The notes: a model not told the origin generated them from the sequence alone. Positions 12,516 through 33,646 are shown, numbered from the stretch's first letter. The stretch is DNA of 64,000 nt from Clostridiaceae bacterium BRH_c20a (GCA_000961765.1 LADT01000042.1:40907-104906), one strand, 5' to 3'. Program-made: numbers and translations.

Positions 12516-12627
12516 ACTTTTCCCCCTTTAAAAAAAAGCAATTTTTCATAAACTTCTCCGAAGGATTTAAAAACACCTTTTCATTTTTAGATGAAATATC
12601 AGGAAAGTGTTTATCTTTAAATGATAA

Positions 12628-12655
12628 GAAAAAACCACCGGGAAATCTCCGGTGG
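12628..12655 (-). terminator. Rho-independent terminator after the VUT-like gene
   Basis: Minus-strand RNA reads CCACCGGAGAUUUCCCGGUGG followed by UUUUUUCUU. Confidence 0.6.
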
Positions 12656-12698
12656 AATAAAAAAGTAGGCGTATTTTAATAAAATTAGCTTTACTCGG

Positions 12699-13484: not shown

Positions 13485-13508
13485 GAAAAACCCTCCTTTA
13501 AATTTATA

Positions 13509-14387: not shown

Positions 14388-14557
14388 TTTTAGAACCTCC
14401 TTTTAGTATATTTATTAATACTCTTAGCCCAGGCTTTTTGATTTTCGAGTATTTTCACTATAAGTGTACAATTTATCACAATCCTCGACTATGGCAATTT
14501 ACACATATCTTTTTATTATTTTTGGTATATTAGCACAACATTATATATATTTTACAT

Positions 14558-14590
14558 AAAAAAACCCCCCACCAATTTACAATGGCAGGG
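14558..14590 (-). terminator. Rho-independent terminator after the flavoprotein gene
   Basis: Minus-strand RNA reads CCCUGCCAUUGUAAAUUGGUGGGG followed by GGUUUUUUU. Confidence 0.6.
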
Positions 14591-14691
14591 TTTGAAAGCA
14601 TGGGAAACTTCATATAAAGGGTTATAGTAATCCTTGCAGATAAGACCTAATTGCCTTTATTAAAAGCCGAAAGCTATCTAACACTTTGTAA

Positions 14692-15306
14692 TTAGCGAAG
14701 GCTTCTTGTGGCCAGGCTAACCTCGTAAATTCGCTTCACCATTACAGACAATTCAGCCTGGGCTCCCTGATCATCACTGGAGGGCTTTTGCGCTGCCACT
14801 CCGCAATGACCCGGCTTATCACTTCTATAGCTAGGATTGACTACAGTAATTCCTTGAATCAGCATAATATCCTGGATGGTACGCAAGGTTCCTTCCTGAC
14901 CTCCAAACCGCGAAGCACCCACGGCCACAGCACCACCAACTTTGTTTAGTAAAACCTTGCCCGTCCACATATAACGGGCCTTGTCCCAAAAGGCTTTTAG
15001 CTGAGCACTTACTGTGCCGAAGTATACCGGAGAGCCTACAATAATTCCATCTGCTTCCCTTAGCAGCTGGTGAACTTCATAGAGGGGACTGTCCACCACA
15101 CAGGCTCCCCTGCAGGGGGTTGAACAATTGGTGCAAAAGGGAACGGGAAACTGGTTCATGATTTCACCCGCCTGAATCAAGCAGGTAAGACCACCCATGG
15201 CCTCAACCTGTTCCATTGCTTTATTTAGCAGATATGCAGTGTTGCCATCTTTAATAGGGCTTCCATTTATACCCACAATAAATACAGGTTTCTCTCTTTC
15301 CAACAT
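14692..15306 (-). CDS. Flavodoxin-like FMN reductase / iron-sulfur flavoprotein family
   Basis: 204 aa. Contains VGINGSPIKDGNT, the Cys cluster CTNCSTPCRGAC, and GSPVYFGTVSAQLKAF. Confidence 0.65.
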   Translation of the reverse strand: MLEREKPVFIVGINGSPIKDGNTAYLLNKAMEQVEAMGGLTCLIQAGEIMNQFPVPFCTNCSTPCRGACVVDSPLYEVHQLLREADGIIVGSPVYFGTVSAQLKAFWDKARYMWTGKVLLNKVGGAVAVGASRFGGQEGTLRTIQDIMLIQGITVVNPSYRSDKPGHCGVAAQKPSSDDQGAQAELSVMVKRIYEVSLATRSLR

Positions 15307-15327
15307 TACCCACCTCTTTACTGCAAT

Positions 15328-16755
15328 TTATTTTAACTCTTTGAGGATCTGGACCACCCATTCCCTAGAAGTTCTGGTTTCCGCAGCCAGGAAGTCCACT
15401 TCCTCCTTACTTACATGGGTAATCTTGCTGCTTTCAAGTGAATTGCGGAGGTATGAGCGGCGTAATTTGCCCAAGGACTGGTCAGTCACTTGAAGCTGTG
15501 AAAAACGCTCCGGAATGACTATTGTTTTCCCCGGAACATTCTCTGCGGGGTCACCTCTTCTGATTTCAACGCCCATATTCTTGGCAAAATTCAACTGTGC
15601 CATAGGATGCTTTCCGGCCCCAGTGTATTCTGTTTCCTGGACAACAACTATTTCATCCTGGTCATATTCACTGGCAATTGCCAGGGCTGCAGCCAGGGAA
15701 GTATTGCCAGCGGGACCCCGCTCAAGTCCTTCTACTTCAGCCAAGGCCTGAGTGACATAGAAAACCTCTCCCTGGGTAACTGTAACATAACGGTCCAGGT
15801 AACGCAGAGGCCTAGCCGCACTCCGGGGAACATCGGTCCTGTCCGGCCAGGAAGCAAAGGGTACACCAAAGCCTGTATGCCCGGTGGTAAATGACTTACG
15901 GTTAAAATCATAGTCAGAGGCCATATGTAATCCCATCAGATCAACACTGACCCCAATTACCTTAGTATCAATACATCCGGCTTTCAACAGACCTCGAGCC
16001 GTTCCCGTTACATTGCCTCCCCCTGCGTGGGTGACAATAACAGCGGCCGGGTCCTGGCTATATCTTTCCCTTACCTGTCCGGCCAACTCATAGCCTAAAG
16101 TCTCCACCCCTGATATGCCTAGTGGGCTGTATAGGGATGCATTGAAAAATCCTGTCTCTTCTAAAAGAAGCAGAGACATGTAAAAAAGCTCCGGCCCAAC
16201 GGTCAACTGGATAACCTCCGCACCTAACGCCTCGCATTTACGGGTCTTTTCAATTATCTCAGGCTGTCCAATATGTTTGGAATCAAATACCTCTTGAACA
16301 ATGATGCACTTTAATCCCCTCATTGCAGCCTGAGAAGCGACAGCGGCCCCATAGTTGCCGCTGGTTGCAGCTATTACACCGGGATAACCTTTTTCACGGG
16401 CATGATAAACAGAGATGGAGGCCCGTCTGTCCTTAAAGCTCCCCGCAGGATTTGCGGCCTCGTCTTTGACCATAATCCGAGCCCCTTTTCCCGACGGCGA
16501 ATTGGCCCGGACCAGGGCTGTGAGATTTTTGAGCTCGAACAAGGGGGTATTGCCTACACCCGCCTGTTTCTGAATGGCCGCTGTTTCCTCCAGAGAATAA
16601 GCAGTATTATTCATCATTCCTTCATAATCAAAGGCTAGGGGCGATATTTCAAAGGCAGCGTAATCTATTCCTAAGGCTTTGTTCATTATGTCGTTTTTCC
16701 TGCCCAACACAGACCCATAAGATATGTCCTTTGTCAATTTTCCTTCACCCCCCAT
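15328..16755 (-). CDS. ortB: 2-amino-4-oxopentanoate thiolase beta subunit-like (PLP enzyme, OrtB family)
   Basis: 475 aa. Trp-synthase-beta-fold PLP motif NPAGSFKDRRA and ATSGNYGAA. Overlaps the upstream ~100-aa OrtA-like ORF by 22 nt. Confidence 0.8.
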   Translation of the reverse strand: MGGEGKLTKDISYGSVLGRKNDIMNKALGIDYAAFEISPLAFDYEGMMNNTAYSLEETAAIQKQAGVGNTPLFELKNLTALVRANSPSGKGARIMVKDEAANPAGSFKDRRASISVYHAREKGYPGVIAATSGNYGAAVASQAAMRGLKCIIVQEVFDSKHIGQPEIIEKTRKCEALGAEVIQLTVGPELFYMSLLLLEETGFFNASLYSPLGISGVETLGYELAGQVRERYSQDPAAVIVTHAGGGNVTGTARGLLKAGCIDTKVIGVSVDLMGLHMASDYDFNRKSFTTGHTGFGVPFASWPDRTDVPRSAARPLRYLDRYVTVTQGEVFYVTQALAEVEGLERGPAGNTSLAAALAIASEYDQDEIVVVQETEYTGAGKHPMAQLNFAKNMGVEIRRGDPAENVPGKTIVIPERFSQLQVTDQSLGKLRRSYLRNSLESSKITHVSKEEVDFLAAETRTSREWVVQILKELK

Positions 16756-17045
16756 AGCTGCTCCCGCAGTTCTGAACCGATACGCTGAAGTTCTGCCACC
16801 GCTGGCCCAAAACTCTGAGTATAACCGGGGTTGACCTCGGTTAGTTCTCCCTGGATTATCCGCCCTGTTACGGTTTTAATTGAGCAAAGCTGTCCTTTTT
16901 CACATTCATCCAGTGCAAAACCTTTTATCCACATTTCAAAGGGTACTGTACGTGTTTCTTCCGGCAGGGAAGCAAGCCTATCCTGAACTTCAAAAATTAT
17001 CCCATGAACCTCTACCCAGTCCCCTGGTTTACATTTTAAATCCAT
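16734..17045 (-). CDS. ortA: 2-amino-4-oxopentanoate thiolase alpha subunit-like (OrtA family)
   Basis: 103 aa. The pattern GDWVEVH...VPFEMWIKGF...TVTGR...G.L.EVNP.Y...FG matches my memory of OrtA. Sits directly upstream of OrtB. Confidence 0.7.
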   Translation of the reverse strand: MDLKCKPGDWVEVHGIIFEVQDRLASLPEETRTVPFEMWIKGFALDECEKGQLCSIKTVTGRIIQGELTEVNPGYTQSFGPAVAELQRIGSELREQLWGVKEN

Positions 17046-17061
17046 ACTTATCCCCCTTTCA

Positions 17062-18414: not shown

Positions 18415-18441
18415 AAACTAACCCCCTTTACACTTGATAAA

Positions 18442-19455
18442 TTAATCTAGTTTAACTTTTTGCCCAATCTTCCGGGCTAAGGCCTCTTGGTATACATGCC
18501 AGCCGCTCAGGACATCTTGGGCCGCTGTTCCGACACTCTTAAAAAGGGTGTAATCCTCCGGTGTGCGCCGCCCCTCTACTGAGCCCATCAGGACGTGCCC
18601 CAGTTCAATAACTTGTTCCTCTTTAATCAGGCCCTGGGCTAGCGGACGAGCCAGGTCTCCGGGGACAAAGGCAGCAGGCTTACTATCAACTGTAATAATA
18701 CTGGAGGCCTGTACCAGTTCCTCATCGATTTCCTGCATAGAGGAGCTAAATGAGCCAGTGGCATTAACATGGGTTCCCGGCTTTAGCCATTCTTTCCGGA
18801 CAATAGGCTCATAGGATGTAGTGCAAGCACAGATAACATCACTCTGGTTACATAATTCCGCAGCTGAAGTACAGATTATTATTTCTACGGGTCTGGCTGC
18901 TTTTTCCGTCAATTCCTTCAGTTGGCCGACTAGGGTTTCCACTTTACTAAGGGTCCGGGAATAGAGCAAAATCTTTTCGATGGGTCTTACTGCCAAGACA
19001 GCCTCGGCCTGATGGAAGGACATACTCCCTGCTCCCAGTACTCCCAAGGTAGACGCCTCTGGTCGGGCTAAGGCCGCGGTAGCCACAGCCGAAGCTGCTC
19101 CCGTTCGGATTGCCGTCAGGTAAGTAGCATCCATAACTGCTTCCAGTTGGCCAGTCTTATTATTAACAAGCATTAAAGATCCTATGGTTGCCGGTAGTCC
19201 CTGGGAGGGGTTTTCCGGAAACAGCGAAACGATTTTGACACTTAACAATTCTTCATCCCCCACCAAGCCGGACATAACCAGCATATCTGCTTCCTGTGAA
19301 GGGATGGAGACTTGGTGCCGTTGGGGAACGTTGACCTTTTTGTCTGCTATGTTAATAAACGCCTTGGATGTAGCTTCTATTGCTGCTTTTATTGGGAAAA
19401 GCTGTCGAACTTCAGCTTGGTTTAAAATTAACAAGCTATCAACTCCCGTTTTCAA
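18442..19455 (-). CDS. Ornithine cyclodeaminase / mu-crystallin family NAD(P) enzyme
   Basis: 337 aa. Contains DATYLTAIRTGAASAVAT and the Rossmann motif LGVLGAGSMSFHQ. Confidence 0.8.
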   Translation of the reverse strand: MKTGVDSLLILNQAEVRQLFPIKAAIEATSKAFINIADKKVNVPQRHQVSIPSQEADMLVMSGLVGDEELLSVKIVSLFPENPSQGLPATIGSLMLVNNKTGQLEAVMDATYLTAIRTGAASAVATAALARPEASTLGVLGAGSMSFHQAEAVLAVRPIEKILLYSRTLSKVETLVGQLKELTEKAARPVEIIICTSAAELCNQSDVICACTTSYEPIVRKEWLKPGTHVNATGSFSSSMQEIDEELVQASSIITVDSKPAAFVPGDLARPLAQGLIKEEQVIELGHVLMGSVEGRRTPEDYTLFKSVGTAAQDVLSGWHVYQEALARKIGQKVKLD

Positions 19456-20717
19456 TATTTGTTTTTATATGCCAACTGGCGAATGGCCTCTGCCAATACT
19501 GTCACCCCTGCCATGCATTGACTAGGGGATGTATACTCTTCCCCGCAATGGCTTCTGCCCCCAGTGCTGGGTACGAAGAGCATGCCGATTGGGGCAAAAC
19601 GAGCCGCCATAATGGCATCGTGCCCGGCACCACTAACCATTTCATGATAGTCAAGTCCGGCCTTACGAGCCGCCTCAGCTAAAATATCCCTTAATATTGG
19701 ACTACAAGGCACCGGTTCCACCGCCAGTATATTTTTCCATTCCACTAGTACGCCCGTTTGGGCTGCTACTTTTAGGGTCTCTTCCTCCAATTGACTATAC
19801 AAACCCTTTAGTTTTTTGGGATCAGGGTCCCGCATATCAATGGTAAAAACCGTCTCAGCGGCCACAACATTTACAGCCCCGGGGTTAGCTGAGATTCTGC
19901 CTACAGTAAATACGGTATCTCCCCCGGACTGTCGGACACATAAATCCATGGCCCCAATCATCTTGGCCGCGGCCAATAAAGCATCATGCCGCATTCCCAT
20001 GGGCGTAGTGCCCGCATGGTCACTGCGTCCCCTGATAGTGAGTTCTGCCTGTCTCATGCCCGTTATACCACTTACTATACCTATTGGACAACCCTTGGCT
20101 TCGAGTACGGGCCCTTGTTCAATGTGCAGTTCCAAAAAGGCTTCTACATCCGATCGTGGGGTAGAACCGGAAGGGGAGAGACTATAGCCAAATGCTTGAG
20201 CAGCGGCTTTCAGGGAAATACCGTTTTCATCCACTTTAACTAACTCTTTTTCTTCCAAATCACCGGCCATCCATTTACTGCCCATAAGACCGCTGAACCT
20301 GCTGCCCTCCTCGCCGATAAAGGCGATAACTTCAATAGGATTCTGCGGTCGGCCATAGGTTTTCAGCAGGTAGCCTGCTGCAATTATGCCACCTGCAACA
20401 CCCAGCATCCCATCATATATTCCTCCACCTCTAACTGTGTCAAGGTGTGAACCCATTGTGACAGCCCGGGCCTGGTTGTCTGTACCCTCAATACGGCCAA
20501 TTATGTTGCCAATACCGTCCTTTTTCACCTCAAAGCCGTGTTCTTTCATCCAGCCCGCTACAAGATTGGCCGCCTCCTCATATTCCTGAGTATAGGGGCT
20601 ACGCCACAGGCCAAATTCTCCAATGCCAACCTTTCCTAGTTCCTGCAGATAACTGGAAAGCAAAACTTCATACCCATGTGAATTGAGCTTTTGTAAATCT
20701 TTAGATATTTTCATCAA
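19452..20717 (-). CDS. M20 amidase of the hydantoinase/carbamoylase family (N-carbamoyl-amino-acid / beta-ureidopropionate / allantoate amidohydrolase type)
   Basis: 421 aa. Contains MGSHLDTVRGGGIYDGMLGV, IGEEGSRF and GRSDHAGTTPM. A 4-nt overlap links it to the downstream OCD gene. Confidence 0.8.
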   Translation of the reverse strand: MMKISKDLQKLNSHGYEVLLSSYLQELGKVGIGEFGLWRSPYTQEYEEAANLVAGWMKEHGFEVKKDGIGNIIGRIEGTDNQARAVTMGSHLDTVRGGGIYDGMLGVAGGIIAAGYLLKTYGRPQNPIEVIAFIGEEGSRFSGLMGSKWMAGDLEEKELVKVDENGISLKAAAQAFGYSLSPSGSTPRSDVEAFLELHIEQGPVLEAKGCPIGIVSGITGMRQAELTIRGRSDHAGTTPMGMRHDALLAAAKMIGAMDLCVRQSGGDTVFTVGRISANPGAVNVVAAETVFTIDMRDPDPKKLKGLYSQLEEETLKVAAQTGVLVEWKNILAVEPVPCSPILRDILAEAARKAGLDYHEMVSGAGHDAIMAARFAPIGMLFVPSTGGRSHCGEEYTSPSQCMAGVTVLAEAIRQLAYKNKY

Positions 20718-20720
20718 GTG

Positions 20721-21467
20721 CTAACCTCCCTGAAAAATTCCAAGCCCCTTTTTTAAGCTATCCATTAAGGCACAATCGGGAGCAGAGCCAGTATCTCGCA
20801 AACCTAAAATATCGAGAAATGCCCAGAAAATAGCTAGATTGGTAGAAACCACTGGGATGCCCAGGTCGTGCTCCAAGGGAGCTATTACTTCTAAGGTCCG
20901 TAAGTCTGTGGCCAGGATGCAGAGAGCATCAGCCCCTTTAAAACCCATAGCCCTAGCTTCCCGGTAGAGGCTTTCCGGGGTTACCCTTGTTACTGCATGA
21001 TAATCATCAATATCCAAACTTTTTAAGGCCACCGGGTTTAGACCCCATTCCTGAAAGTAAGGGGCTACAAGAGGCTGAATTGTAGAAGGATAAGGTGTAA
21101 GCACAGCCACATTTTTGGCCTGAAGCTCAATCAAGGCTTTGGCAGTGCATTGGGCGGCAGTAATCAATTCCACTCCCTGCCCCTGTATACGCTCCTGAAA
21201 GGAGCAATCCCACTGTTTTCCTTTGACCAGGCTGGTTGACATGCAGGCATAGACAATAACGTCCACCTGGGAAAGAGCAAGTTCACCAGTACCACGGGAA
21301 GCCTGGGTTTCCATGCGGTTCAAAGCTTCTGAATTAAAGGCTCCCTCCACAATCATTCGTGTGGCAAAAGCCGCCGCCCCTTCAGGTAAGACTTTACTCA
21401 TTTCGGGTTCAATAATAGTATTATTGGCAGGAATCAAAAGACCAAGTTTACCTCTCCACCCGTACAT
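20721..21467 (-). CDS. Asp/Glu/hydantoin-racemase superfamily enzyme (maleate-isomerase / arylmalonate-decarboxylase-like)
   Basis: About 248 aa from MYGWRGKLGLLIPANNTIIEPE (RBS GAAAGGA). Two candidate catalytic Cys (VYACMSTS; ALCILATDL) sit at the spacing known for maleate isomerase. Confidence 0.7.
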   Translation of the reverse strand: MYGWRGKLGLLIPANNTIIEPEMSKVLPEGAAAFATRMIVEGAFNSEALNRMETQASRGTGELALSQVDVIVYACMSTSLVKGKQWDCSFQERIQGQGVELITAAQCTAKALIELQAKNVAVLTPYPSTIQPLVAPYFQEWGLNPVALKSLDIDDYHAVTRVTPESLYREARAMGFKGADALCILATDLRTLEVIAPLEHDLGIPVVSTNLAIFWAFLDILGLRDTGSAPDCALMDSLKKGLGIFQGG

Positions 21468-21547
21468 TTTAACTATCATCCTTTCACTATGCCCAAGGCA
21501 CAAAAACTAATGATGTCATCTCATTCTCAATTCTCCATTTTCAATTT

Positions 21548-22912
21548 TCAATTCCTAGAAACACTCTCTCCGTAACCGGGTTTTACAATTATAGTGCCGC
21601 TGTCATATACCCATTTCCCCCGGACCATGGTTTTCTCAACCCTACCCTGGAGTGTTACTCCCTCAAAAGGAGTCCATTTCGATTTGCCCAGCAGTGCCTT
21701 TCCTTGGACCTTCAAACTGACCCTAGGGTCAACTATGGCTAGGTCAGCATCTACCCCCGCAGCTATGGTCCCCTTGCGGGGGTAAAGGCCTAGCCAACGG
21801 GCAGGCTGTTCAGACATAAGGTTGACGATATTCTCTATGGTAATTCTTCCTCGACTGGCGGCATCCAGCATTAGGGGCAAAGCTGTTTCTAAGGTGGGGA
21901 CACCACTGGCCCCTTTCCAGATATCCTCTTTTCCTGCTATCTTTTCTTCCCAGCTATGGGGTGCATGATCTCCGCCAATCATGTCGATTGTGCCATCAAC
22001 AAGCTCGGTCCACAGAGCTTTAACCATGTCTGCTTCCCTAAGAGGCGGAGCCATCTTAGCTGCCGGTCCTAAACGAAGCATGTCATCGGTGTTCAGAAAA
22101 AGATGATGGGGATTTACTTCGATCTTAATATCTGCCAAAGACTTTAAAGCTTTATAAGCTTTTATTACGTTAAGTGCCTCCATTGTGCTTATCTGCCGAA
22201 ATAGAAGCCGGACATTTGTTACCCTAGCTATTTGAGTGATGCGGGCCACCTCGGCAGCTTCCGCCACCGGTGGTCTGGCCTGTACCCAGGCCAGGGGATC
22301 TATCCGGCCACTATTTTGTAAGTGCTCTGTTTCGGCAGCAACTATGCTGGCATCGGTGGCATAAACAGCCACCGGCAGTCCCAGCTGGACCGCGTTCCTA
22401 AAAATTTGCAAGTAATGGGCTCCATCTCTAACCAACCACCCCTCAGGTACATCGCAGGCAGCAACATCCAAGATAATGGCTCCTGCATTTTTTAGAGCTA
22501 CCAAATTTTTGATGTTTTGAGGGGTCACTTGGGCACTCACCCCAAAGTCAACTACACAACGGTCCTGACCCAATTCCAGTAAATTCCTGATACTGGCGCT
22601 ATCGACAGCAGGGGGAGACGTATTAGGCTGTGCCACCACAGTTCCATACCCCCCGGCCGCAGCTGCACAGGTCCCGGTGTAGAAATCCTCCTTTTGGGTA
22701 TAGCCGGGGTCCCGCAGGTGTACATGTGTATCAACTAGAGCAGGAATTACCAGTTTACCCTCGGCATTATAATAGCCGTCAGCTTCCGGCACATTTGAAC
22801 AGTCGGAAATAGCAATGATACGGCCGTTCTTAATGGCGAGATTGGCTTTACCCCTCCAGGAGGAGGTTACTACCTCTCCATTCATCACCACATAATCAAA
22901 CAAACCTGTCAC
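21548..22912 (-). CDS. Cyclic amidohydrolase (dihydroorotase / dihydropyrimidinase / allantoinase-like)
   Basis: 454 aa. The metal motif VDTHVHLRDPG and ...AQPNTSP parallel the operon-encoded PyrC (IDMHVHLREPG...MPNTNP), but the protein is longer and divergent. Confidence 0.8.
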   Translation of the reverse strand: MTGLFDYVVMNGEVVTSSWRGKANLAIKNGRIIAISDCSNVPEADGYYNAEGKLVIPALVDTHVHLRDPGYTQKEDFYTGTCAAAAGGYGTVVAQPNTSPPAVDSASIRNLLELGQDRCVVDFGVSAQVTPQNIKNLVALKNAGAIILDVAACDVPEGWLVRDGAHYLQIFRNAVQLGLPVAVYATDASIVAAETEHLQNSGRIDPLAWVQARPPVAEAAEVARITQIARVTNVRLLFRQISTMEALNVIKAYKALKSLADIKIEVNPHHLFLNTDDMLRLGPAAKMAPPLREADMVKALWTELVDGTIDMIGGDHAPHSWEEKIAGKEDIWKGASGVPTLETALPLMLDAASRGRITIENIVNLMSEQPARWLGLYPRKGTIAAGVDADLAIVDPRVSLKVQGKALLGKSKWTPFEGVTLQGRVEKTMVRGKWVYDSGTIIVKPGYGESVSRN

Positions 22913-22970
22913 CCCTTCTTGAAACTAATATTCATGCTGCAATTATCTTACATCTCAGCTTTTTCTTTAA

Positions 22971-24269
22971 TTACCTGGTTATGCCCACGCTATCAGGATA
23001 GGTAATGCTAGGCAGATAAAGGGTCAATTCTGGCCAGTAGGTGATTAAAAGCAGGGCAATGAGAGTTACAGCTATAAAAGGCAGTACTGCTGGAATTATC
23101 TTGACCATAGGCACTTTGGTAACACCTGTAGCAACAAATAAGTTTAAGCCAAAGGGCGGTGTATACATACCAATTGCTAGATTTGCCGTCAGCACAACAC
23201 CCAGATGAACGGGGTTAATGCCCATTTTCATTGCCATTGGATAAATCAAAGGAGCAAGAATGGTAACCGCCGCCGCTCCATCCATAAACATCCCGGCAAC
23301 TAAAAAGAGAACGTTGATAGACAACCAGAAGACTATCTGAGTGGTATTGGGACCCAGCATCATTTCTGCTAAGAGCTGCGGGGCCTGGTTAACGGTAAGA
23401 ACCCAGCCAAAAACTGAAGCTCCAGCTACCAAAACCATGACACCCGCCAGGGTTATAGTGGACTCGAGAGCCGTTTCTAGCAGAGACTTCCAAGTGAACT
23501 CCTTGTAAACATACATCCCCACGAAGGCAGCATATACAGCCGAGACACCGGCTGACTCTGTGGGAGTAAAGACCCCTGTATAAATTCCACCGAGAATTAT
23601 AAAAGGAACTCCAAGAGCCCAAGCCGCATCCTTACCTGTCCGAACAATTTCCTTTAAGCTAAAATGTGAATCAGGCTGGCGCTTTCCTTTGACGGCTACA
23701 TAATAGGAGTAGGCTAGGATAGAAATTCCGAATATTATACCGGGTATAATGCCAGCCACAAATAAGGCGCCGATGGAAACTCCAGTAACCGTACCATAAA
23801 CTATCAGAGTTATGCTGGGGGGAATTAGAATAGCTACAGCACCGCTAGCAGTAATCAAACCAACGGCAAAGGCACTGTCATATCCCTTTTTTGTCATTTC
23901 GGGATACATAAACCCGCCCATGGCGGCAACAGTGGCTGGGCTTGAACCAGAAAGGGCTCCAAAAAACATACAAGCCAACTGGGTAGTAAGAGCCAGACCC
24001 CCACGCATAAAACCAGCTAAGCAGAGGGTAAACTCCAAAAGCCTTTGGGCAATACCTCCTCTACGCATTATGTCTGCAGCAAAAATAAAAAAGGGCATAG
24101 CCATCAAGGAAAACTTATCAATTCCGGCAAACATCCGCTGAGCCACAACGGAGGTTGGTATATCACTACCAAAGATTAATGCCAAAAGAGGGGCAAAGGA
24201 TAGTGCGATAAAAATAGGCACCCTAGCAAAAAGCATGAAAAAAAGAACCAAAAGCATAGAAAGAATCAT
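22971..24269 (-). CDS. TRAP transporter large permease subunit (DctM family), system 2
   Basis: 432 aa polytopic protein. Paralog of 2016-3293 and contiguous with a DctQ-like ORF. Confidence 0.9.
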   Translation of the reverse strand: MILSMLLVLFFMLFARVPIFIALSFAPLLALIFGSDIPTSVVAQRMFAGIDKFSLMAMPFFIFAADIMRRGGIAQRLLEFTLCLAGFMRGGLALTTQLACMFFGALSGSSPATVAAMGGFMYPEMTKKGYDSAFAVGLITASGAVAILIPPSITLIVYGTVTGVSIGALFVAGIIPGIIFGISILAYSYYVAVKGKRQPDSHFSLKEIVRTGKDAAWALGVPFIILGGIYTGVFTPTESAGVSAVYAAFVGMYVYKEFTWKSLLETALESTITLAGVMVLVAGASVFGWVLTVNQAPQLLAEMMLGPNTTQIVFWLSINVLFLVAGMFMDGAAAVTILAPLIYPMAMKMGINPVHLGVVLTANLAIGMYTPPFGLNLFVATGVTKVPMVKIIPAVLPFIAVTLIALLLITYWPELTLYLPSITYPDSVGITR

Positions 24270-24755
24270 TTACTGCTCCCCTCCTTCTTTAAAAGTTAAG
24301 TAAAAATGCTGAGAAAATCTAAGAGCTCCCAGACCAAAGCCCAGCGGCAGACAAAAGTACACCAAGTAAAAAGGCAGTTGTAAGGCAGGTGATTTCTGGG
24401 CTGTAGCCATCTGCTTACTCACCGTCTCAAAGCTGTAAAAAATCATCATTACACAAAAAACAATAGAGACCAGGTCAGCAAATAAAGTCATGTACCTCTG
24501 ATTCTTCTTGCTGAGAAATGCGGCAAAAAAATCGATGCTGACATGGGCATTCTTACGGGCATTGAGACCGATCCCAATAAAAGTAGCCCAAATAATAAGA
24601 TAGCGGATTAATTCTTCAGACCAAGGCAAACCCGCTTTAAAGACATAACGCAGAACCACGTTAATAAACATCAGCGCTGTGGCTAGTATAAAGCCCAGCG
24701 AACAAAACCATTCTTCAGCTTTGCCAATTAAAGTGTTAAGCTTTTCCATGGACAT
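24270..24755 (-). CDS. TRAP transporter small permease subunit (DctQ family), system 2
   Basis: 161 aa, 4 TM, positioned between the DctP-like and DctM-like genes. Confidence 0.8.
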   Translation of the reverse strand: MSMEKLNTLIGKAEEWFCSLGFILATALMFINVVLRYVFKAGLPWSEELIRYLIIWATFIGIGLNARKNAHVSIDFFAAFLSKKNQRYMTLFADLVSIVFCVMMIFYSFETVSKQMATAQKSPALQLPFYLVYFCLPLGFGLGALRFSQHFYLTFKEGGEQ

Positions 24756-24860
24756 ACCACCTTGTTGTTTTGAATTTTAATTTTTTTAAAAAAGGAGAGG
24801 CTCCTTCTGGCAGCCCCTCCCTGGAGGTCTTAATGGCATGATTCAATTCTTGGCTTCCTA

Positions 24861-25928
24861 TTATTTATTGGCTTCCTCAGCGGCTTTCTGGAGCTCAGTT
24901 ACCATATCTGCGCCAACGCGGCCGGAAACGAACTCAACAACAGGCTTGGAGGCAGCTTGGAAAGCCGTAAGTTCTTGCTCACTTGGAACGTATACTTCCA
25001 TCTTGTTCTTTTTCAGTTCTTCCAGCCACTTATCGGAGTTGGTCTTCATCTCTTCCCACTCGGACTTGGAAGCGAATATAGCAGCCTCACTAACATTCTT
25101 CTGAATATCTGCAGGCAGTCCGTCAAACCACTGCTTGTTGGCTACAGTAATATACAAGAAGGGAGCGTGGTTGGTCACGGTTACAACCTTCTGAACTTCC
25201 CAAAGCTTCAGCATGACAAGAGTCTGAAAGCCGTTCTCTTGCCCATCAACAACTTTTTGCTGGAGAGCGTTGTACATTTCACCGTACTCGATAGGAGTAG
25301 GATTTGCTCCAAAAGCCTTATAGGTCTCAATTAGGATAGGTGCTGGCATAACACGGAACTTCATACCTTTTAAAGCTGCCGGTCCTTTGATGGGGACGTT
25401 GGCTGTCATCTGCTTTAAACCACCGGTTTCCATTCCCAGTGCAACCATACCCTTTTCTTCTAGCCCCTTATTGATTTTAGCTGCGGCAGGACCAAACATA
25501 ACTTCCTGAGCTGCATCCATGTCTTTGAATAAGAAAGGAATATCATAAACCTCTAAGGCTTGGTTAAAGTTAGAAAGCACGGAAGTAGGCTGCTGGGTCA
25601 TTTCGATAGTACCGTTGGCAGCTTGCTCAGCTTGCTCTCTCATCTGTCCCAACTGCATATTGGGGAAAATAGTTACCTGAACCTGACCGTTACTGAGTTC
25701 TTCCACTTTTTGTTTAAAGGCTTCTACGCCGCGATGCTGCGGGCTGTTAGTATCCTGATTATGACCAAATTTAATTTTGTAAGTTTTTGCTTCCTTAGCA
25801 GGCGCCGGGTCAGACTTGGAGTCAGGCGCCGGAGCAGGTGTTGGATCAGGTTTTGAACAACCTGCCAATGCTAAAACTAAGACTGCTACCAAACACACAA
25901 CAATAAGCTTTTTAAAGTTAAACTTCAT
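24861..25928 (-). CDS. TRAP transporter substrate-binding protein (DctP family), lipoprotein, system 2
   Basis: Start trimmed to MKFNFKKLIVV (RBS AGAGGAGGAA). Lipobox LALAGCS, a Pro/Ala-rich linker, then a DctP-like body. Confidence 0.85.
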   Translation of the reverse strand: MKFNFKKLIVVCLVAVLVLALAGCSKPDPTPAPAPDSKSDPAPAKEAKTYKIKFGHNQDTNSPQHRGVEAFKQKVEELSNGQVQVTIFPNMQLGQMREQAEQAANGTIEMTQQPTSVLSNFNQALEVYDIPFLFKDMDAAQEVMFGPAAAKINKGLEEKGMVALGMETGGLKQMTANVPIKGPAALKGMKFRVMPAPILIETYKAFGANPTPIEYGEMYNALQQKVVDGQENGFQTLVMLKLWEVQKVVTVTNHAPFLYITVANKQWFDGLPADIQKNVSEAAIFASKSEWEEMKTNSDKWLEELKKNKMEVYVPSEQELTAFQAASKPVVEFVSGRVGADMVTELQKAAEEANK

Positions 25929-26062
25929 TTTTATTCCTCCTCTTTTTTTCAATCAAATTTTGTTTGTCTTAAATAGGAAAACGCAACACGGGACAGCTTC
26001 CTCTCATCACCTCCTTAAATGACCTGACCTTACTTTACTTAAAAACAAATCCGATGAATTGG

Positions 26063-26974
26063 TCAATTCCGAGTGTGGGCAGCTCCCACTAGGCTGTTAA
26101 CATCTTCTATCCCTTTTTCTTCTAAATATTGTTCAAGCCCTGCTAAAATTTTAGGCGCAGCCATGGGGTCGAAAAAGTTAACTACACCCAACGCCACTGC
26201 CTGAGACCCTGCCAAAAGAAACTCAATGACATCACGGACATTGGCAATTCCCCCCATCCCGATAATGGGTATCTTCACGTTTTGGTATACCTGGTAAACA
26301 AGGGCGACAGCAATGGGACGGATAGCTGGCCCCGAGAGGGCTCCCATCACATTTCCCAAAAATGGCTTTCTTGTTTCTATATCAATCATCATAGCCCTGG
26401 GAGAGTTGATCATAGAGATAGCATCAGCTCCAGCAGCTTCTACAGCCTTGGCAACCTCGATAATATTGGACTGATCAGGGGGAAGCTTGGGGATTAAGGT
26501 CAGCCCTGTTTTCTTTCGGGAAAGAGCTACCACCTTGTAAGCCATATCCTTGTTAGCCCCAAACTGCAGACCTCCTGCCTTCACATTGGGACAGGAAAGG
26601 TTTAATTCAATCCCCGCCAGAAAGCCCAACCCATCACTTAGTTCAACTATCTCGGCATATTCTTCTTCAGTCCGTCCCACAACACTTAAAATAACTGGGG
26701 TCTTAAGTGCTTTAAGCTTAGGTACATCCTCGCTGACAAACATTTCCCAGCCTTTACTGGGTATACCCACTGCGGAAAGGACCCCGGAGGGGGTTTCTGT
26801 TATCCTCGGAGGAGGATTGCCAGGCCAAGAATAAGCCCGGACTGTCTTTGGAACAAAGGCGCCGAGTATATCAGGAGAATAAAGGCTCTCATAATCCAGA
26901 CTATGGCAGCCTGAACCTGTTGTTATGGGATTTTGCATTTTTATTTTACCAATCTTTACGGAAAGATTAACCAT
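26063..26974 (-). CDS. pyrD: Dihydroorotate-dehydrogenase type 1B catalytic-subunit-like flavoenzyme (PyrD-like; possibly an orotate/pyrimidine reductase)
   Basis: Start trimmed to MVNLSVKIGKIKMQNPITTGSG, giving an 8-nt overlap with the pyrK-like stop. Contains the active-site motif IELNLSCPNVKAGG and the FMN-binding tail IIGMGGI. The IGLQNPG-type loop is divergent (VGIPSKG). Confidence 0.75.
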   Translation of the reverse strand: MVNLSVKIGKIKMQNPITTGSGCHSLDYESLYSPDILGAFVPKTVRAYSWPGNPPPRITETPSGVLSAVGIPSKGWEMFVSEDVPKLKALKTPVILSVVGRTEEEYAEIVELSDGLGFLAGIELNLSCPNVKAGGLQFGANKDMAYKVVALSRKKTGLTLIPKLPPDQSNIIEVAKAVEAAGADAISMINSPRAMMIDIETRKPFLGNVMGALSGPAIRPIAVALVYQVYQNVKIPIIGMGGIANVRDVIEFLLAGSQAVALGVVNFFDPMAAPKILAGLEQYLEEKGIEDVNSLVGAAHTRN

Positions 26975-27788
26975 TTGAGACCACCTCCCAGGACAAGAAA
27001 ACAGGTCCTTCTTTACATACCCGCTTATAACACCTGCTCTTCTGATCCTGACCTTGATATAGTTCAACCACACAACCCTGACAGGCTCCTAGTCCGCAGG
27101 CCATATACTGGTCTAGGGATATCTGGGCATTAATTCCCTGCCGGTGAGCCAGGTGGTGGATATTTTTAATTAAACTGCAGGAAGGACAGAAGTCGCATAA
27201 TCCTCCCATATAAATCTGATCCAGCTTGATCTTACCAGCTACCCGTTCCAACTCCTTTGTCATAAATGGACCACATCTCCAGGCACCGTTGTCCGGGTAG
27301 AATAACAATTCACCTTTTCCTTCAAGGAAGCTAAAAGAGTGCAAAAGCTCAGTGTATTTCGAGCTTAGGAAAGCATATACCCCCACTCCCTTTGCTGCAG
27401 CCTGATCAATTAAGGCAGCTAAGGGACCTATGCCTGTATCTCGACCCAAAACCGCAATATTTTTAGCTGAAGCAGGAAGGGTAAAGCCATTACCCAAGGG
27501 GCCCAATATTGAACAAGTATGACCTGGTTCCCAGGTCGTCATAATCTCAGTACCCTGGCCTACAACCTTGTATAGGATATCAATAACCCCTTCTTCCTTA
27601 TAGATTCTCGAGACCGTTAACGGCCTTCTGAACAAAGGATCGGTCTGTTCAGTTAGCCGGAGCATTACAAACTGTCCGGGAACAATGATGCGGGCTATTT
27701 CCGGGCACTCTAATTTAATCAGCCAGAAATTTTCCATAACTTTGCTATTTTCTAATACTTTACCACTGATATCATACTTTTTGTCCAT
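26967..27788 (-). CDS. pyrK: PyrK-like FAD / 2Fe-2S electron-transfer subunit
   Basis: 273 aa. Ferredoxin-reductase fold with the C-terminal motif MACGLGACQGC...C..GPVF. Confidence 0.75.
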   Translation of the reverse strand: MDKKYDISGKVLENSKVMENFWLIKLECPEIARIIVPGQFVMLRLTEQTDPLFRRPLTVSRIYKEEGVIDILYKVVGQGTEIMTTWEPGHTCSILGPLGNGFTLPASAKNIAVLGRDTGIGPLAALIDQAAAKGVGVYAFLSSKYTELLHSFSFLEGKGELLFYPDNGAWRCGPFMTKELERVAGKIKLDQIYMGGLCDFCPSCSLIKNIHHLAHRQGINAQISLDQYMACGLGACQGCVVELYQGQDQKSRCYKRVCKEGPVFLSWEVVSNG

Positions 27789-27846
27789 TTTTTACACCTC
27801 ACCTAAACATTTTTCCTGGCTAACAGCTCTTAGTCAGCCAAGATAA

Positions 27847-28056
27847 TCAAGAACGGCGTAAGCATAAAATAAAATTGCCTCGAGCATCCAGCCTGACCAA
27901 TAAGCCCAGTTCCTCCACATAAGGTTTGACTATGTTTTTAATAAATTCCTGGACCATAGGCTCATTTTCAAAGAGCTCCGCCTGAGGACTAGGAATCCCT
28001 AGGATCTTCTGGGTAATCTCAATTATTTTTGAGCCCTCACTTAGCTGTTCAACCAA
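27847..28056 (-). pseudogene. Remnant of an M20 peptidase gene (N-terminal ~65 codons only)
   Basis: The 69-aa ORF ITQKILGIPSPQAELFENEPMVQEFIKNIVKPYVEELGLLVRLDARGNFILCL aligns without gaps to LTLDLVSRPSTQTDKMEYDPEIKSFISDTLMPELKKRGLNSVELDDMGNLICRV of the M20 at 8920-10101. Like that gene, it lies directly downstream of an AOR gene. Confidence 0.5.
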
Positions 28057-28119
28057 CTCAACAAGATATCCTTCATTTTAACTATCATTCCTTTCGCTAT
28101 CCTCAAGGCCATTGGTTTA

Positions 28120-30021
28120 CTAGAGCTTTACCCACTCAAGGTTTAATTTTTCGAGAGTTTCTTTTTTAGGAATTCCTGTATCAGTATCCCAGTTCATAGC
28201 TGTATAATACTGCTCTAGCAAATTCCTTAAATCTTCTGGGCTCACTCTTTCTCCGCTGCCCGGTCCATCGGGAACAGGTTCTTCCATTAAACGTCCCGGC
28301 AAGGTATCATCTGCTGAAGTAAACCCTTCCCGGATGTTGTAGCAGCGCTCCAAGGTATTAATTCGGGCTGCCGCAGTGTAAAGATCCTCAATAGTATAAG
28401 TGTGGCCAAGGGCCGCACTGAGAAGTTCACTCCAGTTCTGCCAGTCAAAACTCCGGTTGTAAGCAAAAGTACAGTTGGGTCCGCTATCCTGAATAATCCT
28501 TAGGGCAGCATGCCTTTTCACCAGTTCCCCTTTGCCTTCTATCTCTTTGTGTATTCCCAACTTAAGTTCCTCAAAAACAGGAAGCCCAATGGCATGGTGG
28601 CAACCGCCTCGGTTGCCGGCGGCAAAGACTATTGCCTGTCCCTTGGCTGTCCTCGGTTCATATCCACCCAACTCCATACCTTTTACATGCATAGCAAAAT
28701 ATTCGCTGCCCTGACCGATTTGTTCAGCCGCCCGTTTGGTTCCCATAGCCAGAAGGGCACCAAACCCTCTCCTGTAAGCGATATCTTCAATAAGGGTCAA
28801 AACCACCTTGCTGTTTCCGAAGCGAACCTCCAACCCCCCTGTATCCTCCCTATCAAGATATCCCCTTTCGAAGCATTCCATGGCAAAAGCAATAGATACT
28901 CCCGCAGAAATGGTGTCAAGCCCCAGCTCATCACAGAGTTGATTTGCCGCTATAATTGCCTCCGGGTCTCCAATACCGCAAGCAGAACCCAAAGCAAAGA
29001 TAGATTCATACTCAGGTCCGTCGCAACTTGCCCCGGCAAAAGGGCCTTCTTTTACTAGGGTCAGCTTGCCGCAGCGCAAGGGGCACCCAAAGCAGCCTGT
29101 ATCTTTAACAACCAGCCCCAGGTTATCCCGCATATAATTCATGGAGATATCCCGAGCCTTAGAGAAGGTACATTGAGCCCAGTTGGATGTAGGCAGCCCT
29201 CCCAAAGCGCTGCGGGCTTCTTGGGACTCTCCTGTACCGTAGCGGGCAAAACTGTCGCCATTGCCGGGCTTTGCCTTAAAGTCTGTCATAATTCTTTTAA
29301 AAATCTGCTTATATTGCCCCGGATCAGCCATGCTAATCTGTTTATGTCCCTTTTCCACCATTATTGCTTTAAGGTTTTTACTTCCCATAACGGCGCCTAG
29401 ACCACCCCGGCCAAACTGGCGCCAATCATCGGTACTGACACCCGCATAAGGAATGAGGTTTTCCCCGGCAGGTCCTATGATGGCCCCGGAGAAACTTGAA
29501 CCAATTTCGTTTTTTAGATGGTATAGGGCTAGGGTGGTACCCATCCCCCACAAATATTGGGCTTCCCTGACTTTGATGCCATCGGGAGTAATCAGTAAAT
29601 TAACAGGCTTTTCTGCTTTTCCTTCAACTATGATAATATCATATCCTGCCTGGCGCATATTAGCTCCCAATCTTCCGCCAGCCATTGTGTACATATATGT
29701 CCCGGTAAGGGGGGATTTCGTTAGCATAATTACCCTAGAAGCTGTTGGAAAACCAGTGCCAGTAAGGGGTCCCGTAGCTAGAATCACCTTATTTTCAGGC
29801 GAAAGTGCCTCAATAGCTGGTCCCACTTCATCCCACATAATTTTAGCACCAAGGCCCCGGCCGCCAATAAATCTTGAGACGGTCTCTTGGTCAATCTTTT
29901 CGATTTTGCTGGTACCACTGCTTAAATCAACCCTTAACACTCTGCCGAAATCAGACACAATATTCACCCCTATTTTCCCCAAGATGTTTTTTCCAAAAAG
30001 TGAAAATACCACTTTCAACAA
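28120..30021 (-). CDS. Aldehyde:ferredoxin oxidoreductase family tungsten-pterin enzyme (AOR-3)
   Basis: 633 aa ORF. Contains GGRGLGAKIMWD and CFGCPLRC, with a distal Cys in GPNCTF. The true start may be the GTG near 29958 (RBS AGGGGTG), giving M-SDFGRVLRVDL. No adjacent ferredoxin gene. Confidence 0.85.
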   Translation of the reverse strand: MLKVVFSLFGKNILGKIGVNIVSDFGRVLRVDLSSGTSKIEKIDQETVSRFIGGRGLGAKIMWDEVGPAIEALSPENKVILATGPLTGTGFPTASRVIMLTKSPLTGTYMYTMAGGRLGANMRQAGYDIIIVEGKAEKPVNLLITPDGIKVREAQYLWGMGTTLALYHLKNEIGSSFSGAIIGPAGENLIPYAGVSTDDWRQFGRGGLGAVMGSKNLKAIMVEKGHKQISMADPGQYKQIFKRIMTDFKAKPGNGDSFARYGTGESQEARSALGGLPTSNWAQCTFSKARDISMNYMRDNLGLVVKDTGCFGCPLRCGKLTLVKEGPFAGASCDGPEYESIFALGSACGIGDPEAIIAANQLCDELGLDTISAGVSIAFAMECFERGYLDREDTGGLEVRFGNSKVVLTLIEDIAYRRGFGALLAMGTKRAAEQIGQGSEYFAMHVKGMELGGYEPRTAKGQAIVFAAGNRGGCHHAIGLPVFEELKLGIHKEIEGKGELVKRHAALRIIQDSGPNCTFAYNRSFDWQNWSELLSAALGHTYTIEDLYTAAARINTLERCYNIREGFTSADDTLPGRLMEEPVPDGPGSGERVSPEDLRNLLEQYYTAMNWDTDTGIPKKETLEKLNLEWVKL

Positions 30022-31442
30022 AGTTTTTGTAATATTGCTGACTGCCGTTCAACCTGGTCCTTGTGGGTCCTAAAAAAGGCATCCCTGATTCGTTGACCCC
30101 GTTTGGTGGTCTCATCCATAATTTTTTGCTCCGAATTATTCAGCAATCTTCCATTTAATAAAACCGGTTTACCCTGGACTATCACAGTTTCTACCGCAGA
30201 AACCGGTTCAGAATATATTAGCTGCCACATTACATTATTAAGAGGATTTAAAGAACAGTTTTCCAGATTCAACAAAACAAGATCAGCCTTTTGACCAGGT
30301 GCTATTGTACCCAGGTCATTTTGAAGCAAGACCTTGGGTCCATGGTGAGTAACCATCTCCCAGACATTATGGGGCTGTATCCAAGTATCGGGCTGTTCAT
30401 TTAAGGCATTGTGAATTAGCCCTGCCAGTTTCATAGATCCAAACATACTTAAACTACCTGAAACATTAGCTCCGTCAGTACCCAAGGCCACAGGCACTCC
30501 TTTTTCCCTGTACTTTGTTACCGGTGCAATACCGCTGCCAAGAATGGAATTACTAGCAGGACTGTGCACAACGGTAGCACCGCGGGATGCAACCAGGTCT
30601 ATTTCATCTTCCGAAAGCCAGATTGAGTGAACTAATGATGTACGTTCACTTATGCATCCCAGTTGATCCAAGTGAAAAATCATTGGTTTTCCATAAAGGG
30701 ATTCTGCGGTCCGAGCCTGGGCCCTTGTCTCCAAGACATGGGTGTGGAAACCGGTATCAAGCAGCATGGCCTGTCTTGCACATTCCCGCAGAAGCTGATC
30801 CGAACAGCGCTGCGGTCCCGAAGGCCCAAAAGCAACCTGGAGTCTCCCCTCTTTTGTATGCCATTTTTTATATAGTGAGGTTGTGAGTTCTAGTAAATCA
30901 TTAGCAGAAGGGACTTCTTGGTTCTTAAATTCAGCAGGAACAAGTTCTTCCCTTACAGGCAATGTTGCATAATAGGGCTTATCACTGATCATAGGAGCCA
31001 TGGTAACCCGTATTCCTATATCCCGATAGGCCTGCATTGCAGCATCAAGAGCCTCCGGCCCTTGGGCTAAGTGATCCATGCAACTTGTCGTCCCCGTCTT
31101 CAGCATTTCCATGGCTCCACTCAACACATTCCAATAGACGTCTTCCGGTGTTAAAAGGCCGCCTAGAGCCATGGTGTAAAGCATCCATTGTTCCAAGGCG
31201 ACTGTAGGGTTAAGTCCTTTTACAAAATTGGCATAGGAATGGTAATGGGCATTGATAAGGCCAGGCATTATTAGTTTGTTTTGCCCATCAATCACCATAT
31301 CAAAATTATCGGGTTCTATATATACCCCAGTTGTTACAGAAGCGATTTTTCCCTGTTCAATAGTAACACAACCCTCTAACAGTAAAGGGTTTTCTTTGTC
31401 TCCTGTAAATATAGAAATATTTCTTATAAGAATTTTCGACAT
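30015..31442 (-). CDS. Amidohydrolase-superfamily aminohydrolase (SsnA / chlorohydrolase / nucleobase-deaminase-like)
   Basis: 475 aa. Contains the HxH motif PGLINAHYHS, later HTHVLE, and GTDGA. Confidence 0.7.
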   Translation of the reverse strand: MSKILIRNISIFTGDKENPLLLEGCVTIEQGKIASVTTGVYIEPDNFDMVIDGQNKLIMPGLINAHYHSYANFVKGLNPTVALEQWMLYTMALGGLLTPEDVYWNVLSGAMEMLKTGTTSCMDHLAQGPEALDAAMQAYRDIGIRVTMAPMISDKPYYATLPVREELVPAEFKNQEVPSANDLLELTTSLYKKWHTKEGRLQVAFGPSGPQRCSDQLLRECARQAMLLDTGFHTHVLETRAQARTAESLYGKPMIFHLDQLGCISERTSLVHSIWLSEDEIDLVASRGATVVHSPASNSILGSGIAPVTKYREKGVPVALGTDGANVSGSLSMFGSMKLAGLIHNALNEQPDTWIQPHNVWEMVTHHGPKVLLQNDLGTIAPGQKADLVLLNLENCSLNPLNNVMWQLIYSEPVSAVETVIVQGKPVLLNGRLLNNSEQKIMDETTKRGQRIRDAFFRTHKDQVERQSAILQKLC

Positions 31443-31642
31443 ATAAAGTAATTCTCCTTTGCTGGAAGTTATCCAATCTTTAAGAATACATTATTCTTGC
31501 TAAAAAACGGGCCATTTGAGTGACTGTATTTTCTGAAAGTTCATCTTTTTTTATTCGCCATTTTTTATGTGAAGTCCTTTACTTTATTTGCGGAAAGAAT
31601 AGGAAGCTCTTTATCCAAAAGTGATAAACGAGATAAGAACAC

Positions 31643-31665
31643 CCTTCGGATATACTCCGAAGGGT
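31643..31665 (-). terminator. Hairpin CCCUUCGGAGUAUAUCCGAAGGG downstream of the TAXI-TRAP permease gene
   Basis: Perfect 8-bp GC-rich stem, but the following U-tract is weak (UGUUCUUAUCU). Confidence 0.45.
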
Positions 31666-31697
31666 TAAAAAGGGGGTAAGGAGTTTGTATACTAAAA

Positions 31698-33593: not shown

Positions 33594-33646
33594 GTTACCT
33601 TCAGCCTAGGGATTTTTCCCTAGGCTGAAGGAATGCAAAAAACTAC

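Follow-up and report, generated by a model that had tools for sequence, protein, structure and literature searches.

The 64,000-nt stretch of DNA that we analyzed (the window; LADT01000042.1:40907-104906 of Clostridiaceae bacterium BRH_c20a, GCA_000961765.1) contains a GC-rich block of catabolic genes at positions 14,692 to 31,442. This block was at this site before BRH_c20a and its sister genome, Betzabe_MAG005, diverged, and its sharp left edge is secondary. We believe that the block probably descends from an old acquisition from a somewhat GC-richer member of the Bacillota. It is the larger part of a module of about 19–20 kb that runs from an SsnA-type amidohydrolase through an FMN reductase to a Fer4-AOR pair. 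An ancient acquisition is our best reading; a locally maintained GC optimum is about equally compatible with the data. A preliminary description of the stretch, made from the sequence, had proposed the horizontal acquisition of a complete module into a pre-existing catabolic locus. BRH_c20a is a 4.5-Mb, 98%-complete metagenome-assembled genome (MAG) whose 16S rRNA is only 85% identical to that of Proteiniborus (PMC5067608).

Direct counts gave 46.9% GC for 14692-31300, compared with 38.2% for 1-14691 and 40.9% for 31301-64000. Unsupervised binary segmentation, run without prior coordinates, split the window into exactly three segments, at 14,700 and 31,210, and at these limits the block was about 47.0% GC against 38.2% on the left and 40.8% on the right. 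The best three-segment log-likelihood ratio was 134.4 (at 14,750/31,250), whereas 200 shuffles of 1-kb chunks averaged 29.5 and never went above 62.1. Third codon positions show the largest shift; their GC (GC3) was about 0.45 in the block and 0.29–0.35 in the flanks (Mann-Whitney p = 1e-5 and 1e-6). Gene by gene, GC3 was 0.39–0.48 in all 15 block genes, 0.21–0.355 in the left flank and 0.30–0.43 in the right flank. The segmentation and the GC3 profile confirm the steps that the preliminary description had placed at ~14.7 and ~31.3 kb from hand counts of 60-nt lines. All ten of these counts were correct (57–62% inside, 32–42% outside), but the lines were local extremes, and the true contrast is 6–9 points rather than about 20.

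Our baseline for the host was 81.5 kb sampled out of the 4.5-Mb genome, which includes extensions past both window ends (9 kb + 8.5 kb; 17.5 kb at 37.4% and 40.1% GC, with spore-germination and SLH genes). The 64.7 kb of non-block DNA in this sample has a mean of 39.7% GC, and no 16.6-kb stretch that avoids the block is above 44–45%. Genes such as pyrB, pyrC, carA, carB, pyrF, pyrE, a P-type ATPase, GerA, GerAC and an SLH-GH18 protein have 39–43% GC and a GC3 of 0.30–0.40. Measured against the non-block DNA, the deviation in GC, GC3 and codon usage that had been suggested as a check is present. Within the sampled region, it is the block that is the outlier and not the DNA around it. Left and right flank are not alike either, with a median GC3 of 0.29 (1-14691) and 0.35 (31443-64000; p=0.0009) and intergenic GC of 28.9% and 38.7%, so the neighborhood has at least three compositional classes and not two.

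The best homologs of OrtB (88% identity) and of the SsnA-type amidohydrolase (78%) are on one 345-kb contig of Bacillota bacterium Betzabe_MAG005 (GCA_049323895.1), and 37 kb of this MAG is collinear with the window (two loci merged). The shared order begins with AllG-FdrA-AllG-LctP-carbamate kinase-NMT1_3-DctM(fused), continues with SsnA-AOR-M20-PyrK-PyrD-DctPQM-cyclic amidohydrolase-EutA-like-M20-OCD-aminotransferase-OrtA-OrtB-FMN_red-Fer4-AOR, and ends with EamA-PucR-DHOase2-PyrK2-PyrD2-SsnA2. Segmentation of Betzabe_MAG005 found a 45.1% GC block at the orthologous place, between flanks of 37.9–41% and 36.5%. Amino-acid identity between the two genomes was 68–90% in the block and 72–91% in the flanks, and identity at 4-fold sites was 0.43 for the block, compared with 0.44 and 0.46 for the flanks and a saturation expectation of ~0.27. 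These values indicate that block and flanks have changed in step, at about one synonymous substitution per site. At this distance the 4-fold sites are too near saturation for substitutions to be polarized reliably by parsimony with L014 as outgroup. With equal synonymous divergence and the same site in the sister MAG, the block predates the lineage split, and the alignment indicates that the module was already in place in the common ancestor of BRH_c20a and Betzabe_MAG005. Since that split the block has retained its 6–9 extra GC points. The comparison with close relatives lacking the block, which the preliminary description had called for, came out differently, as the only close relative found carries the block at the same site. 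The right junction spacer is homologous in the two genomes (~70% identity, several conserved blocks), and an inverted repeat within it (Table 1) could be a candidate operator for the block promoter, judging from its position and conservation.

The sharp left edge is secondary. In the sister MAG there are 30 nt from the FMN_red stop codon to the Fer4 start codon and no FmdA-Vut_1, and the ribosome-binding part of this 30-nt spacer is conserved upstream of Fer4 in the window. A third MAG (L014) has OrtB followed by Fer4-AOR, and FmdA-Vut_1 is absent there too. Fer4 and AOR thus come directly after FMN_red or OrtB in both the sister MAG (77% and 86% identity) and L014 (63% and 72%), and in the sister MAG the pair has block-level GC and lies inside the GC-rich segment. 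FmdA and Vut_1 are adjacent in Natronincola ferrireducens (70% and 75% identity), in 35% GC DNA. An FmdA-Vut_1 cassette was inserted in the BRH_c20a lineage and cut Fer4-AOR off from the module. The roughly 300-bp AT-rich spacer and terminator reported at the left edge are there (Table 1), but because FmdA-Vut_1 is missing from the sister MAG and L014, they belong to this later low-GC insertion. Because the module runs on into Fer4-AOR in both of those genomes, the block is not a complete module with its edge at 14.7 kb, as had been suggested. A sharp GC edge need not mark the end of a transferred unit.

There is a second large indel at this locus. An extra 8-kb low-GC segment (2016-10122), which has TRAP system 1, Pyr_redox_2, a ThiS-like gene, AOR, Fer4 and M20, is missing from the sister MAG, where it would lie between AOR and EamA; homologs of TRAP-1 (47–64% identity) adjoin an SsnA homolog on a 51% GC contig (L018). 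The window further differs from the sister MAG by an extra M20/M28 gene to its left and by an internal M20 deletion. The locus is a mosaic.

Within the block, codons move to G/C endings in essentially all codon families. GGG, CCC, CGG, AGG and CTG are more frequent, while GGT, CGT, TTA and CCA are rarer. In codon optimization in low-GC Firmicutes, GGG, CCC, CGG, AGG and CTG are normally non-optimal. Because these codons rise while GGT and CGT fall, the pattern resembles mutational bias and not translational selection. The shift extends to the proteins, which have more Ala, Arg, Pro and Gln and less Ile, Lys and Asn. We also compared families that have members in the block and elsewhere (AOR, DctP, DctQ, DctM, M20, PyrD, PyrK, SsnA-type and DHOase-type), and the block copy was GC-richer in nine of the nine comparisons. 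The mean difference, block minus paralog, was +0.133 in GC3 (p=0.004) and +0.029 at first and second codon positions (GC1+2; p=0.012).

Outside the sister pair, the module core occurs in another context on a 47% GC contig (L014/L015), where it adjoins Nramp, an amino-acid permease and a creatinase-like gene, and homologs of SsnA and PyrK (69% and 65% identity) are on the 51% GC contig L018. The cluster to the right of the block occurs elsewhere without it, in Liberiplasma (34% GC), an Izimaplasma MAG (48%), a Clostridia MAG (52%) and Natronincola, with differing gene orders. The separable flank cluster and the GC-richer contigs with homologs are therefore compatible with an old transfer from a GC-richer Bacillota genome. 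In such a history, the module would have been joined to an independent PucR/AtzD/AllFGH/carbamate-kinase cluster, any mobile element responsible would since have been lost, and the GC excess would be partly ameliorated. As for the proposal of insertion into a pre-existing catabolic locus, the neighboring cluster is indeed separable and occurs without the block, but either of the two may have come first.

The right-flank cluster itself (31698-49445) has PucR, NMT1_3/TAXI-TRAP, two FdrA-AllG pairs, an LctP-type permease, AllH, an amidohydrolase, an AtzD/TrzD-type ring-opening amidohydrolase and carbamate kinase. These genes stay together as a unit in Liberiplasma, the Izimaplasma MAG and the Clostridia MAG, and partly in Natronincola (L020, L021, L022, L016), which together span a genome GC of 34–52%. 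The cluster has the appearance of one that is widely exchanged and serves ring catabolism of the barbiturate or cyanurate type, and it would feed an oxamate-carbamoyltransferase-like, ATP-yielding branch.

Several results weigh against an acquisition, or at least do not help it. We found no integrase, transposase or conjugation genes; in the block and next to it, every open reading frame (ORF) of at least 100 aa has a Pfam domain of metabolism or transport. There are no tRNA or tmRNA genes in the window, and no direct repeats were found that pair the two block edges. The preliminary description had also seen no integrase or transposase. The GC-normalized dinucleotide signature of the block does not depart from that of the host. 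The distance (delta* x1000) was 43 from block to left flank and 40 from block to right flank, compared with 35 between the two flanks and 50 between the halves of the right flank; from the block to the GC-richer contigs with homologous genes it was 80–134. A host-like signature is compatible with old residence and fits a native origin equally well. The foreign look of the block is in its GC content only. Between its genes, the block has a GC of 0.383 (648 bp), no more than the 0.387 found between those of the right flank. We also found no close relative without the block. In a genome scan with the right-flank TAXI-TRAP permease, a scan that missed BRH_c20a itself and Natronincola, the sole close relative (89%) has the block, and the next matches (57–62%) have the flank cluster without it and are not close enough relatives to stand in for an empty site.

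The amelioration framework for acquired genes is that of Lawrence and Ochman. We fitted a two-state substitution model calibrated on the 4-fold sites of the flanks, with a decay factor of 0.40 per lineage and two taxa. Simple amelioration by the host process gave an ancestral block GC at 4-fold sites (GC4) of ~0.53, but this one-parameter model had a marginal fit (G=8.8, p=0.012). Allowing the block an equilibrium of its own (0.48 in the window, 0.38 in the sister MAG) gave a good and better fit (p=0.35, delta-AIC ~6), which also counts against amelioration. On these models, amelioration and a maintained optimum are not separable with two taxa, and letting the lineages differ in rate would saturate the model.

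These results can also be read as those of a native region that was never foreign, with a higher GC3 equilibrium that comes from selection on codons, expression or mRNA, or from a regional bias in mutation or repair. The GC excess has lasted in two lineages through about one synonymous substitution per site, an equilibrium of its own gives a better fit than simple amelioration does, the dinucleotide signature matches the host, mobility genes are absent from the block, and its intergenic GC does not exceed that of the right flank. However, the way in which codons rise and fall bears little resemblance to translational selection, and GC1+2 and amino-acid usage are shifted even against paralogs of the same family. 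The nearest homologs beyond the sister pair are on 47–51% GC contigs in unrelated contexts, and the adjacent cluster is found elsewhere without the block. We consider a native origin unlikely but plausible. The reverse arrangement, in which the block is native and the low-GC flanks are foreign, AT-rich islands around a normal region, has in its favor that FmdA-Vut_1 (12.5–14.7 kb) and 2.0–10.1 kb are true low-GC indels relative to the sister genome, and that GC3 is lower on the left than on the right. It would, however, leave the housekeeping and typically native genes on the wrong side, as these have the composition of the non-block DNA, and the flanks in the sister MAG are also at 36–41% GC. 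We regard it as very improbable.

A recent insertion of a complete module into BRH_c20a, with edges at 14.7 and 31.3 kb, would explain the sharp steps at both coordinates and the AT-rich spacer and terminators at the edges. It is contradicted by the presence of the block at the same site in the sister MAG with a homologous junction spacer, by block orthologs that are no more alike than those of the flanks, by a left edge that was made by the FmdA-Vut_1 insertion with the module continuing into Fer4-AOR, and by the host-like signature. The protein divergence of 10–30% excludes the Betzabe_MAG005 contig as a misassembly or a same-population contaminant, and we consider a recent insertion so improbable as to be ruled out. 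A metagenome-assembled source also raises the question of a chimera in which the assembler joined contigs of two organisms. We rejected this, as there is next to no chance of it: at least eight independent assemblies from several projects and assemblers cross the left junction, and both junctions are conserved in the MAG of another species. Many contigs that were assembled independently, from Mont Terri rock porewater and other subsurface metagenomes, encode identical proteins.

For the proposal of horizontal acquisition, then, what stands is a compositionally distinct and coherent catabolic set that is separable from its neighbors and has homologs on GC-richer contigs; what does not stand is that it is specific to this genome or foreign in signature. 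Ancient, ameliorated acquired clusters, or catabolic islands, share with the block contiguous, co-oriented and functionally coherent genes of deviant GC, GC3, codon and amino-acid usage, as well as separability from neighbors and homologous modules in unrelated contexts. Unlike them, the block has no integrase, transposase, tRNA or direct repeats, has a host-like signature, is fixed at the same site in two species, and fits amelioration marginally. As a compositional anomaly the block is ordinary, because catabolic neighborhoods are mosaic and bacteria often have old acquired clusters that lack mobility genes. The useful outcome is the corrected timing and boundaries: the module is old, common to sister species, and was split by a later two-gene insertion.

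Table 1. Features of the GC-rich block and its junctions (window coordinates).
Feature	Position	Strand	Description
GC-rich block	14692..31442	-	15 co-oriented genes and one pseudogene remnant; 47% GC, GC3 ~0.45; composition, segmentation, Pfam
Right junction spacer	31443..31697	-	255 bp; terminator of the upstream TAXI-TRAP operon at 31665-31641
Inverted repeat AAGAATA-N3-TATTCTT	31482-31498		right junction, just upstream of SsnA-type gene; kept in sister MAG spacer
TRZ/ATZ/SsnA-type amidohydrolase	30015..31442	-	Pfam Amidohydro_1; first block gene in transcription direction
Aldehyde:ferredoxin oxidoreductase (AOR-3)	28120..30021	-	Pfam AFOR_N + AFOR_C; 85% to Betzabe_MAG005
M20 peptidase pseudogene remnant	27837..28065	-	internal deletion of ~300 codons; between PyrK and AOR-3
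PyrK-like/PyrD-like class-1B dihydroorotate-dehydrogenase-type pair	26063..27788	-	Pfam, NCBIfam
PyrK-like	26967-27788	-	NCBIfam scores 127 and 123, cutoffs 314 and 219; below all cutoffs
PyrD-like	26063-27073	-	extent as ORF, called gene shorter; NCBIfam DHOD equivalog passed, 338 > 269
TRAP transporter 2	22971..25952	-	DctP 24861-25952, DctQ 24270-24755, DctM 22971-24269; Pfam; 83-90% to Betzabe_MAG005
Ring-opening triad	19452..22912	-	cyclic amidohydrolase, EutA/Amdase-family protein, M20 amidase; Pfam, NCBIfam
Dihydroorotase/allantoinase-type cyclic amidohydrolase	21548-22912	-	Pfam Amidohydro_1; DHOase domain in precomputed matches
EutA/Amdase-family isomerase or racemase	20721-21503	-	Amdase/Asp-Glu-racemase superfamily, Pfam E=1e-23
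M20 carbamoylase-family amidase	19452-20717	-	NCBIfam hydantoinase/carbamoylase family amidase, 402 > 204
OCD/mu-crystallin family enzyme	18442-19455	-	Pfam
Class-III aminotransferase	17062-18414	-	Pfam
OrtA	16734-17045	-	Pfam OrtA, E=9e-31
OrtB	15328-16755	-	NCBIfam OrtB equivalog passed, 826 > 550
FMN reductase/WrbA-like flavoprotein	14692-15306	-	Pfam
Left junction spacer	14388..14691	-	304 bp, 30.3% GC; terminator after FMN reductase gene and FmdA promoter region
Intrinsic terminator	14590-14567	-	3' of FMN reductase gene
Inserted low-GC DNA	12545..14675	-	~2.1 kb in the FMN_red-Fer4 spacer; carries FmdA, Vut_1, terminators
FmdA	13509-14387	-	part of inserted cassette
Vut_1	12699-13484	-	part of inserted cassette
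Second terminator	~12655-12629	-	hairpin and T-run; in the inserted DNA
Fer4 + AOR	Fer4 12111-12515, AOR 10245-12104	-	displaced module end; intermediate GC, 0.39-0.43

The gene content listed in the preliminary description was confirmed with Pfam, and no intergenic gap is longer than 331 bp. OrtA and OrtB are true members of the 2-amino-4-oxopentanoate thiolase subunit families (Pfam, NCBIfam). The cyclic amidohydrolase passed the pyrC_multi subfamily in NCBIfam (331 > 279) but failed every equivalog cutoff (dihydroorotase, allantoinase, dihydropyrimidinase and ErtD), so that it can be placed in the dihydroorotase subfamily only; its scores included D-hydantoinase 254 < 393, allantoinase 303 < 358 and ErtD 278 < 650. 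The M20 amidase of the triad also passes the allantoate amidohydrolase subfamily (418 > 399). The SsnA-type amidohydrolase, which is under every NCBIfam cutoff (SsnA 189 vs 444), has the lowest GC3 among the block genes (0.39). The M20 remnant that had been noticed was confirmed by tblastn with the intact 393-aa M20 of Betzabe_MAG005, of which it matches residues 5–73 (65% identity) and 376–393. The gene is whole in the sister MAG, and here the first ~70 and the last ~18 codons are left.

The gene content may be of more value than the GC step, as a PyrD/PyrK-like reductase, a cyclic amidohydrolase, a carbamoylase, OCD, an aminotransferase and OrtAB are conserved together. We can suggest, with low confidence, what these genes might do. 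TRAP would take up a carboxylated cyclic ureide (orotate or hydantoin type), the ring of which would be reduced by the PyrD/PyrK-like pair and then opened by the cyclic amidohydrolase, and the M20 amidase would remove the carbamoyl group. The EutA-like, OCD and aminotransferase enzymes would convert the resulting amino acid to a 2-amino-4-oxo acid, which OrtAB would cleave thiolytically with CoA, with AOR, ferredoxin and the flavoprotein serving the redox steps. The combination could mark a new anaerobic route for the breakdown of N-heterocycles in deep-subsurface Firmicutes, and this uncharacterized pathway is the most promising lead from the window. That it is a new OrtAB-recruiting anaerobic pathway and that its GC excess is also actively maintained at a region-specific equilibrium in two lineages, for example by recurrent recombination with GC-richer carriers or by selection, is an idea we hold to be rather improbable.

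We searched the literature for the gene combination and for orotate-degradation clusters and found no described counterpart. A metagenome scan with an alignment of the cyclic amidohydrolase gave no further copies of the module (matches were at most 36% identical, and the peptide patterns were too generic), and a tblastn search of 72,556 plasmids found no plasmid-borne cyclic amidohydrolase (best match 38% identity).

With the canonical ornithine-fermentation cluster of Clostridia (ord-ortA-ortB-oraS-oraE-reactivase-orr) the block shares OrtA and OrtB, and its OrtB is 70–74% identical to the copies in such clusters. Unlike them, the block has no Ord (DapB_N/DAP_DH_C), OraS/OraE aminomutase, reactivase or ornithine racemase, and its OrtAB follows a class-III aminotransferase, an OCD-family enzyme and the ring-opening triad. 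Ord, OraS/OraE and ornithine racemase were found neither in the block nor anywhere in the window, and all of them adjoin the OrtB homologs of at most 74% identity (L099-L101). The arrangement in the block was seen only in the window, the sister MAG and L014/L015. It is a rare variant, with the OrtB homologs of at most 74% identity lying in canonical clusters.

Clostridium oroticum ferments orotate reductively with an NAD-dependent orotate reductase, dihydroorotase and ureidosuccinase. The block shares with this system, and with hydantoinase/carbamoylase/racemase sets, a dihydroorotase/allantoinase-type cyclic amidohydrolase, an M20 carbamoylase-family amidase, a protein of the Asp/Glu/hydantoin-racemase superfamily, whose activity does not follow from this membership, and a class-1B dihydroorotate-dehydrogenase-type PyrD/PyrK pair. 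It differs in that the cyclic amidohydrolase, the EutA-like protein and PyrK-like are below equivalog cutoffs and that OCD, an aminotransferase and OrtAB are linked to them. There is also a likeness to ectoine/hydroxyectoine utilization. For two block proteins the best NCBIfam names point this way, EutA (94 bits) for the one and, among others, EutC (187 bits) for the other, a class-III aminotransferase is present (DoeD-type in those systems), and in L014 a creatinase/M24 (DoeA-like) gene adjoins the module. However, both scores are far below the cutoffs (318 and 472), and the block has no DoeA or DoeB.

The PyrD/PyrK-like pair of the block has a catabolic context outside the pyr operon. That operon is also in the window (pyrB, pyrC, carA, carB, pyrF, pyrE; 49576-58016) and has no pyrK or pyrD between carB and pyrF. 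Only two PyrK/PyrD-type pairs were seen, both in catabolic-looking contexts: the one in the block and a second one to the left of the window (L111 15268-16966), which is low-GC, adjoins DHOase-like and SsnA-like genes and lies downstream of a PucR regulator. It may be that biosynthesis depends on one of them, or that both work in the reductive direction. The 1,013 bp upstream of pyrB (58017-59029), where a PyrR-type leader might be expected, have no ORF of at least 100 aa and no Rfam match, and the Rfam scan of the window as a whole returned no families. Among the canonical ornithine clusters, those in two unrelated Bacillota (L099 and L101, loci 8600-16500) have ord-ortAB-oraSE-reactivase directly downstream of the rpsM-rpsK-rpsD-rpoA-rplQ and rplM-rpsI region.

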